64,000 nucleotides of DNA from Escherichia coli (GTDB lineage Bacteria > Pseudomonadota > Gammaproteobacteria > Enterobacterales > Enterobacteriaceae), in the NCBI RefSeq assembly GCF_016026235.1, contig NZ_CP065613.1; one strand, given 5' to 3'. Within the stretch, counting starts at the first letter, position 1. Each line of letters opens with the position of its first letter. Under the pieces are notes generated by a model. The model had not been told where the DNA came from, ran no database searches, and worked only from the letters and a program-made list of their open reading frames with translations. Positions 56,323 through 58,227 of the stretch are shown here, in pieces. A program made the position numbers and the translations under genes.

Positions 56323-56483
56323 TATTGGACTCCATGAAAAAATATTATTGTTAATTGTAACGGCGGGGCGGTTTTGTGATGAGCGCGGATATGTCGTGAA
56401 GTCGTGACAATATAAGGCAGAGTGAAGGATAAATTTTGCGGTGTAAGGCACATATTGATGGGTTAAATAAATGTTGTGAATAA

Positions 56484-56505
56484 AAAATCATTATTTAATG
56501 ATTTT
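56484..56505. promoter_or_regulatory. perfect inverted repeat in the frvA / porin divergent region
   Basis: AAAATCATTA-TT-TAATGATTTT (10-bp arms) is flanked on each side by TTGTGAAT direct repeats. Confidence 0.3.
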
Positions 56506-56798
56506 GTGAATGTTTAACTGTTGCGGATATTTTTCTGCCACGTTATTTATATTTGTGGCTTATGAGTCAGTTTGAATCATATCTAATATTTTTTACGATA
56601 TTTAGTTAAAAACGGCACTATTGTTATATTCCTCACGTTCCAGGAAATCAGCGGATTTACTCATATTATACGGCGGGATACTATCCATCGGCCTGCTGAA
56701 GTTGGATTAAAAATTCGAAAGTGCACACTTTATATTTCTCTATATACGTATTCCTTTTGGAAAGCGTAGGGCCTCCTTTATTTCAGGGAACGTAAATA

Positions 56799-58193
56799 AT
56801 GAAAAAATCGACATTATCTTTAGCCATCGGTTTATTATTGGCATGTAGTACCGGTATGGCAAAAACACAGCATTTAACGCTGGAACAACGCATGGCATTG
56901 CTGGAAGAACGCCTGGAAGCGGCAGAAATGCGGGCGGCAAAAGCAGAGAGCCAGGTTAAACAGCTGCAGACACAACAAGCCGCTGAGATCCGCGAAATTA
57001 AGGCCGCTCAGGGCAATACGCCGGTAAATGGACAGGCAACGGCGGAATCTGCAAAGAAAAATGCCACCTCACCTAATCTTTTGCTTTCAGGTTATGGCGA
57101 TTTAAAAATCTACGGCGACGTAGAATTTAATATGGATGCGGAAAGTAATCATGGCCTGCTGGCAATGACCAACGCTGATGTGAATAGTGATCCCACTAAT
57201 GAACAGTGGAATCTCAATGGTCGTATTCTGTTAGGTTTTGACGGTATGCGAAAGATGGACAACGGTTATTTCGCCGGGTTCTCCGCACAACCGCTGGGTG
57301 ATATGCACGGTTCAGTAAATATCGATGATGCGGTATTCTTCTTTGGCAAAGAAAACGACTGGAAGGTCAAAGTAGGCCGTTTTGAAGCCTACGATATGTT
57401 CCCGCTGAATCAGGATACCTTTGTTGAACATTCCGGTAATACTGCGAACGATCTTTATGACGATGGCAGCGGTTATATCTATATGATGAAAGAGGGCCGC
57501 GGGCGCTCTAACGCTGGCGGTAATTTCCTCGTCAGCAAACAACTTGATAACTGGTATTTTGAATTAAACACGTTACTTGAAGACGGAACATCTTTATATA
57601 ATGACGGTAATTATCATGGACGCGATATGGAGCAGCAGAAAAATGTTGCTTATCTGCGTCCGGTAATTGCCTGGTCGCCGACGGAAGAATTCACCGTTTC
57701 CGCAGCGATGGAAGCGAACGTGGTAAATAATGCTTATGGTTATACCGATAGCAAGGGTAATTTTGTCGATCAGTCCGATCGTACCGGCTATGGTATGAGC
57801 ATGACCTGGAACGGCCTGAAAACGGATCCGGACAATGGCATTGTGGTTAATCTTAATACCGCCTATTTAGATGCTAATAATGAGAAAGATTTCACTGCCG
57901 GGATTAACGCGCTGTGGAAACGTTTCGAGCTCGGTTATATCTACGCGCACAATAAGATTGATGAATTCAGCGGTGTAGTTTGTGATAACGACTGCTGGAT
58001 TGATGATGAAGGGACGTACACCATTCACACCATTCATGCGTCTTATCAGTTCGCTAATGTGATGGATATGGAGAACTTTAATATTTACCTCGGGACGTAT
58101 TACTCCATTCTGGATAGCGACGGTGATAAAAAACACGGTGATGATACTGATGACCGTTACGGCGCACGCGTTCGCTTTAAATACTTCTTCTGA
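56799..58193 (+). CDS. putative outer-membrane (carbohydrate-type) porin with N-terminal coiled coil
   Basis: 464 aa with signal peptide MKKSTLSLAIGLLLACSTGMA and a heptad-like segment LEQRMALLEERLEAAEMRAAKAESQVKQLQTQQ. It is then rich in alternating aromatic/Gly beta strands and ends RVRFKYFF (OMP C-terminal Phe). Confidence 0.6.
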   Translation: MKKSTLSLAIGLLLACSTGMAKTQHLTLEQRMALLEERLEAAEMRAAKAESQVKQLQTQQAAEIREIKAAQGNTPVNGQATAESAKKNATSPNLLLSGYGDLKIYGDVEFNMDAESNHGLLAMTNADVNSDPTNEQWNLNGRILLGFDGMRKMDNGYFAGFSAQPLGDMHGSVNIDDAVFFFGKENDWKVKVGRFEAYDMFPLNQDTFVEHSGNTANDLYDDGSGYIYMMKEGRGRSNAGGNFLVSKQLDNWYFELNTLLEDGTSLYNDGNYHGRDMEQQKNVAYLRPVIAWSPTEEFTVSAAMEANVVNNAYGYTDSKGNFVDQSDRTGYGMSMTWNGLKTDPDNGIVVNLNTAYLDANNEKDFTAGINALWKRFELGYIYAHNKIDEFSGVVCDNDCWIDDEGTYTIHTIHASYQFANVMDMENFNIYLGTYYSILDSDGDKKHGDDTDDRYGARVRFKYFF

Positions 58194-58200
58194 TGAAGGC

Positions 58201-58227
58201 GCGGTGCTGGATATTTTCCGGCACCGC
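58201..58227. terminator. hairpin between the convergent porin gene and rhaM
   Basis: gcggtgctgg / ccggcaccgc, a 10-bp stem with one G-U pair and a 7-nt loop. Confidence 0.45.

Follow-up and report, generated by a model that had tools for sequence, protein, structure and literature searches.

A gene between frvA and rhaM in Escherichia coli belongs to the RafY glycoporin family and was very probably lost in K-12-type strains

Within a 64,000-nucleotide stretch of Escherichia coli DNA (contig NZ_CP065613.1 of RefSeq assembly GCF_016026235.1; hereafter, the window), the sole gene between frvA and rhaM is an open reading frame (ORF) at positions 56799 to 58193 of the plus strand, which starts with ATG and encodes 464 amino acids followed by a stop codon. 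On the basis of profile matches, gene order and sequence divergence, we are highly confident that it is a chromosomal member of the RafY glycoporin family (TCDB family 1.B.15; Pfam family PF16966) that was ancestral at this junction, has been inherited vertically and was lost in K-12-type strains, and that its product, by homology to RafY, would form a wide, oligosaccharide-permeable pore. Both frvA (start at 56322) and rhaM (stop at 58234) are on the minus strand; the porin gene is divergent from the former and convergent with the latter. A Shine-Dalgarno sequence (AGGGAA, 56785 to 56790) precedes its ATG by 8 nucleotides. Gene and family are already known and annotated. The RefSeq annotation, taken from strain FDAARGOS_943 (100% identical to the window over 2.6 kb), lists the product as WP_000749940.1, "carbohydrate porin", and the O157:H7 copy has been named rafY2, in a strain background from which rafRABD is absent (PMC4809568). 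In another study, only 23 of 45 rafY-positive isolates carried rafABD (PMC12987596).

The assignment to the RafY family draws on a hidden Markov model search, a check that had been proposed along with an original prediction made from the DNA sequence alone. In a Pfam scan, residues 104 to 464 matched PF16966 (Porin_8, "Porin-like glycoporin RafY") over profile positions 1 to 372 of 372 (E = 2.2e-153; 511 bits versus a cut-off of 25), and the LamB (PF02264), OprB and general-porin profiles gave no match at E ≤ 1. Plasmid-borne RafY, for which we used the porin encoded after rafR-rafA-rafB-rafD on E. coli plasmid NZ_CP196109 as the reference, is likewise 464 amino acids long and shares 79% identity (86% positives) with the chromosomal porin over 450 residues. 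The chromosomal orthologues of Citrobacter and Kluyvera are closer than that, with 83 to 85% identity, and distant family members share 54 to 61%. The family is small, with 235 representatives at E ≤ 1e-3 among 1.84 billion proteins. NCBIfam holds no family model for the porin, and a sequence search of the PDB returned only chance matches to dehydroquinase (E of ~0.5) and no sequence relative.

The gene and the parts of its product can be laid out as follows.

56799 to 58193, plus strand: porin gene, chromosomal RafY paralogue "rafY2" (ORF, Pfam match, identity to plasmid RafY and RefSeq annotation)
56799 to 56861, plus strand: signal peptide, residues 1 to 21 (MKKSTLSLAIGLLLACSTGMA before K), with a putative signal peptidase I site (from the sequence; orthologues read ...NTGFA before K)
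56880 to 57008, plus strand: predicted periplasmic N-terminal coiled-coil helix, residues 28 to 70, Sugarporin_N-like (AlphaFold2 predicted local distance difference test [pLDDT] score of 71 to 88; motif scan)
57009 to 57089, plus strand: linker, residues 71 to 97, of low confidence (pLDDT of <50) and probably flexible
57096 to 58190, plus strand: beta-barrel domain, residues 100 to 464, with 16 long predicted strands and the C-terminal Phe beta-signal RVRFKYFF

The ORF described in the original prediction, including its helix and its C terminus, was thus found in the sequence. Reading the N terminus, we recognize a signal peptide composed of MKK, a hydrophobic core and GMA followed by K, and this G-[FM]-A site before K is kept in orthologues. 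The stretch LLLAC fits the lipobox pattern as well, but a lipoprotein is unlikely, since Cys16 is not conserved and orthologues read LLLVAN at this place. Structure prediction, also proposed at the outset, was performed with AlphaFold2 on a 50-sequence alignment (mean pLDDT of 81.8) and yielded a barrel-type model with a helix at residues 28 to 70, a disordered linker at residues 71 to 97 and 16 long beta-strands spanning residues 100 to 463, up to the C-terminal ...KYFF. This number of strands fits the one predicted for TCDB family 1.B.15, to which a role in oligosaccharide transport has been ascribed (PMC4827864). The closest structural neighbors of the model were 16-stranded trimeric porins, DcaP among them, with ScrY (18.2) and LamB (17.8) ranking only 13th and 14th; Foldseek agreed.

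Given the full-length PF16966 match, the lack of any LamB match, the 16-strand model and the report of RafY as a general diffusion pore, the barrel is not of the ScrY/LamB type. Of the sugar-specific porin with a ScrY-like coiled coil that had originally been proposed, the outer-membrane beta-barrel porin stands, the N-terminal coiled coil is probably of the ScrY type, and the barrel has to be reassigned to the RafY family. What is ScrY-like, as judged from sequence profiles, is the N-terminal module alone, joined here to a different barrel family. The helix contains three consecutive R-h-x-x-h-E heptads, at R31, R38 and R45, the third of which reads RAAKAE. Kammerer et al. (2005) reportedly described such heptads as the signature of short, parallel coiled coils made of three helices. 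Among long family members, 99 of 117 contained three copies; among short ones, which lack the N-terminal extension, 29 of 33 had none. Sugarporin_N (PF11471) was matched in 16 of the 50 aligned family members at E ≤ 0.01 (best E = 4.1e-7), several relatives carry a precomputed PF11471 match, and the combination of Sugarporin_N with a RafY-type barrel is already present in automatic annotation (protein cluster P0088). Within a predicted loop of the barrel, Cys395 and Cys399 (57981 to 57995) form the sequence C-D-N-D-C, at which plasmid RafY has C-N-N-G-C; these residues are a candidate loop disulfide.

The gene had initially been taken for an extra one at this locus, on the grounds that K-12 has nothing between frvA and rhaM. 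The observation on K-12 proved correct, its junction consisting of a 300-bp spacer with no gene in it. The gene is not an addition, however: in species representatives of other genera, namely, Citrobacter, Kluyvera, Pseudocitrobacter, Scandinavium and Trabulsiella, as well as in Escherichia ruysiae, the porin gene adjoins rhaM in convergent orientation. (In Kluyvera genomosp. 3 [locus L027, ~8001 to 9391], each of two adjacent ORFs matches the porin, pointing to a frameshift or sequencing error.) Klebsiella sp. R390 and Raoultella lignicola show the order rafR-rafA-rafB-porin-rhaM, whereas Enterobacter sp. kpr-6 has frvRXBA-porin-rafR-rafA-rafB, an order that recurs in an Enterobacter metagenome-assembled genome, except that two additional ORFs separate frvA from the porin gene there. 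More-distant members are found as rafA-rafB-porin (Brenneria) or as MFS_2 permease-porin-GH3 (glycoside hydrolase family 3; Klebsiella oxytoca group). Linkage to raf or glycoside genes at orthologous loci, as in Klebsiella sp. R390, Raoultella lignicola, Enterobacter and Brenneria, is typical of the family rather than defining, and, as far as gene neighborhoods tell, alpha-galactoside and glycoside utilization genes are its only recurrent functional partners.

Divergence agrees with this shared gene order. RhaM, RhaD and RhaB are 76 to 91% identical between the window and Citrobacter or Kluyvera, and the 83 to 85% of the porin is in line with that. Synonymous divergence (dS) of the porin gene is 0.22 versus sequence type 131 (ST131) and 0.37 versus E. 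ruysiae, compared with 0.12 to 0.18 and 0.25 to 0.69, respectively, for the rha genes, and its ratio of nonsynonymous to synonymous divergence (dN/dS) is 0.049 (ST131) and 0.027 (E. ruysiae), so low as to indicate strong purifying selection. The porin coding sequence has a GC content of 45.2% (47% at third codon positions) and the 475 bp upstream of it one of 34.9%, as against 50 to 56% (56 to 67% at third positions) for frvA, frvB, rhaM, rhaD and rhaA; the gene and its upstream region are indeed AT-richer than frv and rha, as had been noted before, by 5 to 20 percentage points. This deficit is common to almost all orthologous loci examined, where it tracks the GC content of the host, with Brenneria as the exception. 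Because of the synteny in several genera, a porin dS within the range of the rha genes and the shared GC deficit, the simplest reading of these comparisons is vertical descent at the frv/rha junction since before the split of E. coli and E. ruysiae, under purifying selection, with subsequent loss in K-12-type strains.

A survey of presence and absence, suggested with the original prediction, was carried out on complete E. coli genomes, with presence defined as coverage of at least 80% of a 2.6-kb query. The porin region was found in 2,542 of 5,426 genomes (~47%), O157:H7 and ST131 included; K-12 and HS are among the many that lack it. Both the porin-positive alleles that were sampled and the largest protein clusters have an uninterrupted reading frame. 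The porin-less haplotype is neither a clean deletion nor a clean empty site. While frvA of K-12 is 99.8% identical to that of the window (dS of 0.01), the adjoining spacer (56323 to 56509; K-12 locus L002:3324-3511) is only 72% identical, and the same spacer in E. ruysiae, at 79%, is less diverged than that of K-12. Homology to K-12 ends at ~56509 and is followed there by ~75 bp of unrelated DNA, in which a search against the porin region found only chance matches of 12 to 17 nucleotides, and then by a diverged homologue of the hairpin at the rhaM side (see below). The combination of a 72% identical spacer beside a 99.8% identical frvA and the unrelated 75 bp makes the two haplotypes look old; the step in divergence at the frvA/spacer border suggests either two old haplotypes or the import of the porin-less one.

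The upstream region and the 3' side of the gene contain the following elements.

56323 to 56798, no strand assigned: AT-rich frvA-porin intergenic region (34.9% GC), ~430 bp of which stays with the porin gene in lineages without frv
56474 to 56511, plus strand: two TTGTGAAT direct repeats (56474 to 56481 and 56504 to 56511) bracketing a palindrome
56484 to 56505, no strand assigned: perfect 10+10 palindrome with a 2-nucleotide spacer, its symmetry not conserved
56577 to 56672, plus strand: most conserved upstream block, with an extended -10-like TGTTATATT (56622 to 56630); candidate distal promoter
56707 to 56736, plus strand: sigma-70-like proximal promoter candidate TTAAAA-18-TATATT (9 of 12 positions)
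56745 to 56768, plus strand: leader hairpin UACGUAUUCCUUUUGGAAAGCGUA, 31 to 54 nucleotides before the porin ATG
58201 to 58227, no strand assigned: GC-rich hairpin between the convergent porin and rhaM genes, without a U-run on either strand

The palindrome AAAATCATTA-TT-TAATGATTTT and its flanking repeats are present as originally described. When the 475-bp region was simulated 20,000 times with a first-order Markov model, an inverted repeat as good as this one arose 143 times (0.7%); it is therefore above chance locally but unremarkable at the scale of a genome. Its left arm varies across E. coli lineages and E. ruysiae (AAAATCATTC, GAGTTATTA, GTATCATTA and AAACCATTT), while the right arm, TTTAATGAT, was invariant in the same comparison and no compensating changes were seen. 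The perfect symmetry is limited to the lineage of the window, and other genera are without the palindrome, which led us not to regard it as a demonstrated operator. By eye, neither a CRP site (only TGTGA half-sites) nor a LacI-type, CG-centered operator could be recognized, and the resemblance to Fur and integration host factor sites was a permuted one only, in a sequence whose symmetry is not conserved. The 65 bp around the palindrome were found in 2,545 genomes, versus 2,542 that carry the porin region (a comparison of totals, not genome by genome), and these near-equal counts indicate that the palindrome DNA belongs to the porin haplotype.

Stronger conservation is seen in the block at 56577 to 56672, which is nearly invariant among the window, ST131 and E. 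ruysiae and far more conserved than synonymous sites; positions -261 to -201 retain 78 to 83% identity to Citrobacter. The number of sigma-70-like sites in the upstream region as a whole does not exceed the expectation from shuffled sequences, and other genera have an A/T-rich block at the position equivalent to that of the proximal promoter candidate. Of 16 orthologous leaders, 13 have a hairpin in the corresponding position (about -55 to -32 relative to the ATG), with differing stem sequences and mostly weak single-sequence z-scores; it is followed by a conserved CTTTATTTCA(A/G)GGAA; this hairpin could be a 5' stabilizing stem-loop. An intrinsic terminator or attenuator in the leader was considered and rejected, the stem and the T-run being 8 to 9 nucleotides apart. 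Just downstream of the extended -10-like sequence, 56635 to 56648 is complementary to the Shine-Dalgarno region (56780 to 56793), a pairing that closes the minimum-free-energy fold of 181 nucleotides with a z-score of only -1.4. Across genera, the z-scores of this duplex range from -2.1 to +1.0, and the Citrobacter partner is not at the homologous position; the anti-Shine-Dalgarno pairing is thus an unproven candidate with weak statistics. An Rfam search of 56200 to 58400 gave only a chance match to mir-143 (E = 0.34). At the other end, the hairpin at 58201 to 58227, of which K-12 has the diverged homologue mentioned above, is predicted to be stable on both strands (-24.3 kcal/mol, z = -4.9, on the plus strand; -20.2 kcal/mol, z = -4.1, on the minus strand) and is probably a transcript-end structure shared by porin and rhaM.

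The low GC content of the gene and its upstream region, the end of K-12 homology near the palindrome (~56509) and the existence of a close paralogue that travels on plasmids might suggest that a foreign cassette, marked by low GC and by the palindrome with its TTGTGAAT repeats, was recently gained between frvA and rhaM. We consider this highly improbable: at least six other genera carry the gene at this very junction, its synonymous divergence keeps pace with that of the rha genes, low GC is a trait of the family at syntenic enterobacterial loci, and the orthologues from Citrobacter and Kluyvera are nearer than plasmid RafY. Moreover, no integrase, insertion sequence (IS) element or tRNA is located at the borders, and the K-12 junction, with its unrelated ~75 bp and 72%-identical left flank, is not a clean empty site. 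An equally slim chance is given to the original proposal that the porin is a dedicated outer-membrane route for the substrate of the frv phosphotransferase system (PTS) or for rhamnose-containing oligosaccharides. Adjacency is real, in that frvA and the porin gene have the 475-bp intergenic region in common, rhaM is convergent and several genera preserve the position next to rhaM. Independent inheritance of frv and the porin nevertheless contradicts the link to frv. In ST131, frvRXBA and part of yiiG are gone, yet the porin and ~430 bp of its upstream region (from ~56345, with a 38-bp deletion) remain; E. ruysiae, too, possesses the porin but no frv. Conversely, the porin is missing from K-12 and about half of E. 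coli, in which frv and rha are present. Upstream of the porin gene in Citrobacter and Kluyvera are azlCD and an XRE/cupin regulator, which separate it from frv, or frv is not nearby. As for rhamnose, it is a monosaccharide for which no special porin is needed; no rhamnosidase or other glycosidase is encoded nearby, a strong hairpin separates the convergent porin and rhaM genes, and relatives elsewhere are found with rafA/rafB or with an MFS_2 permease and GH3. Nothing, then, supports a functional tie of the porin to frv or rha.

It is also very unlikely, if marginally less so, that the gene is the silent remnant of a vanished chromosomal raf operon and functionless in present-day E. coli. In favor of this, it is an orphan without adjacent rafRAB where relatives carry raf genes at the locus, its upstream region is AT-rich, about one in two E. 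coli strains lacks it, and truncated alleles exist. Sustained purifying selection across deep Escherichia splits, as reflected in the dN/dS of 0.03 to 0.05, speaks against this, as do the intact frame in the sampled alleles and largest protein clusters and the conservation of the promoter-proximal leader and upstream block beyond the synonymous rate. Our preferred reading of a vertically inherited, wide-pored RafY-family porin has to contend with observations of its own. Sugarporin_N matched the porin of the window itself (residues 27 to 54) with 15.5 bits and E = 0.021, below the 25.7-bit cut-off, and the AlphaFold2 model is that of a monomer. No raf genes stand beside the porin gene in the window, so the linkage typical of the family is missing here, and a tblastn search for remnants of rafR, rafA, rafB, rafD, azlC, azlD and the XRE regulator upstream of the porin found nothing credible. 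A cluster of truncated alleles (P0060; 496 member sequences) starts at Met123 and carries ST131-like substitutions; the gene may be decaying or disrupted in some lineages, or starts may have been miscalled. In the literature accessible to us, we found no experimental work on the chromosomal copy, be it on expression, localization or transport.

Several observations on the surroundings can be added. Besides P0060, the clusters P0027, P0002 and P0014 also represent truncated or internally deleted porin alleles in public data. In ST131 (locus L004, 5425 to 6333) and strain 2A (locus L031), a truncated yiiG (DUF3829) pseudogene lies directly upstream of the porin spacer, without frvRXBA, and the spacer itself shows the 38-bp deletion. 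Just upstream of yiiG in the window, up to ~50411, there is an IS1A transposase gene (locus L001, 1 to 412; RefSeq annotation of the identical genome). Between rhaM and rhaD, E. ruysiae, Citrobacter, Kluyvera and some E. coli strains (hit H29) have a gene of 382 amino acids (locus L009, 9747 to 10895; also L006, L011, L014 and L017) that is annotated as fucO lactaldehyde reductase in one E. coli record and is absent from the window and K-12; in several genera, four genes of ~328 to 561 amino acids are located between this gene and rhaD. Finally, the rhaD-rhaA spacer measures 266 bp in the window (59383 to 59648) versus 450 bp in K-12, a difference that probably reflects the copy number of a repetitive extragenic palindromic (REP) element, since the upstream extension of the rhaD frame translates to REP-like text.

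By analogy with RafY, the most likely function of the porin is that of a wide, oligosaccharide-permeable pore. The protein would be exported through Sec, cleaved after Ala21 and assembled by the beta-barrel assembly machinery, via its C-terminal Phe, into a trimer of the outer membrane, with one N-terminal helix of each subunit contributing to a parallel coiled-coil bundle that would extend into the periplasm. The channel would be a wide general-diffusion pore that speeds the entry of di-, tri- and larger oligosaccharides (of the raffinose, sucrose and maltose class), such that sugars that pass slowly through OmpF and OmpC would reach inner-membrane permeases faster. Since the gene is an orphan in E. 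coli, with no rafRABD adjacent, it would supply any permeases that a strain happens to possess or be a wide porin in reserve; our guess is that the AT-rich 475-bp upstream region entails poor expression under standard conditions. We would go one step further only as a speculation that we hold to be rather unlikely, namely, that orphan rafY2 is a normally silent, wide-bore reserve porin kept in E. coli as an old presence/absence polymorphism. If so, its derepression would alter how cells forage for oligosaccharides and how large solutes or antibiotics enter them, as with GlyP of Klebsiella pneumoniae. As part of the same speculation, a structured leader, with the 5' hairpin and the segment complementary to the Shine-Dalgarno region, might control expression of rafY2.

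The reading of the locus is hereby corrected from a new ScrY-like porin for frv or rha to an ancestral RafY-family pore lost in K-12. A predicted outer-membrane channel that the K-12 model does not have is encoded in ~47% of complete E. coli genomes. Should the channel be as wide as RafY, it could contribute to differences between strains in the use of plant oligosaccharides of the raffinose family in the gut, and, by analogy with GlyP, it could help cells compensate for the loss of major porins. The practical value of this is modest.

Among known systems, ScrY and LamB (PF02264 plus PF11471) resemble the porin in that an N-terminal periplasmic coiled-coil extension, in our porin a Sugarporin_N-like one with a match below the cut-off, precedes an outer-membrane sugar channel. 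They differ in that the RafY prototype is, going by the title of Andersen et al. (1998), reported without a sugar-binding site. A second difference lies in the barrel, which has no LamB-family match in our porin and 16 predicted strands rather than 18. Another channel with an N-terminal coiled coil is DcaP of Acinetobacter baumannii. At 11% identity, however, DcaP (PDB entry 6eus) belongs to a different family, and it is a dicarboxylate and sulbactam channel with no link to sugar genes. GlyP, a RafY-family porin, is normally kept low under the LacI-type repressor GlyR, and derepression of GlyP is alone sufficient for a fitness gain in OmpK35/36-deficient cells (bioRxiv 10.64898/2026.03.29.715108), which offers a precedent for an alternative-porin role and a model of the part that an orphan of the RafY type might play. 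GlyP is encoded in a regulator-permease-hydrolase-porin operon, whereas no regulator, permease or hydrolase gene adjoins the porin gene in E. coli. The closest counterpart is RafY of raffinose plasmid pRSD2 (Ulmke et al. 1997; Andersen et al. 1998), a general diffusion pore that is not carbohydrate specific, as the title of the latter paper has it. The two proteins share their family, length and 79% of their residues, the layout of signal peptide, coiled coil, linker and barrel, the Cys-x3-Cys loop and the C-terminal YFF, and are most divergent in the distal half of the coiled coil and the linker. Unlike RafY, which is encoded 195 bp after rafD, the porin described here is a chromosomal orphan without rafRABD at its side, preceded by 475 bp of AT-rich DNA.

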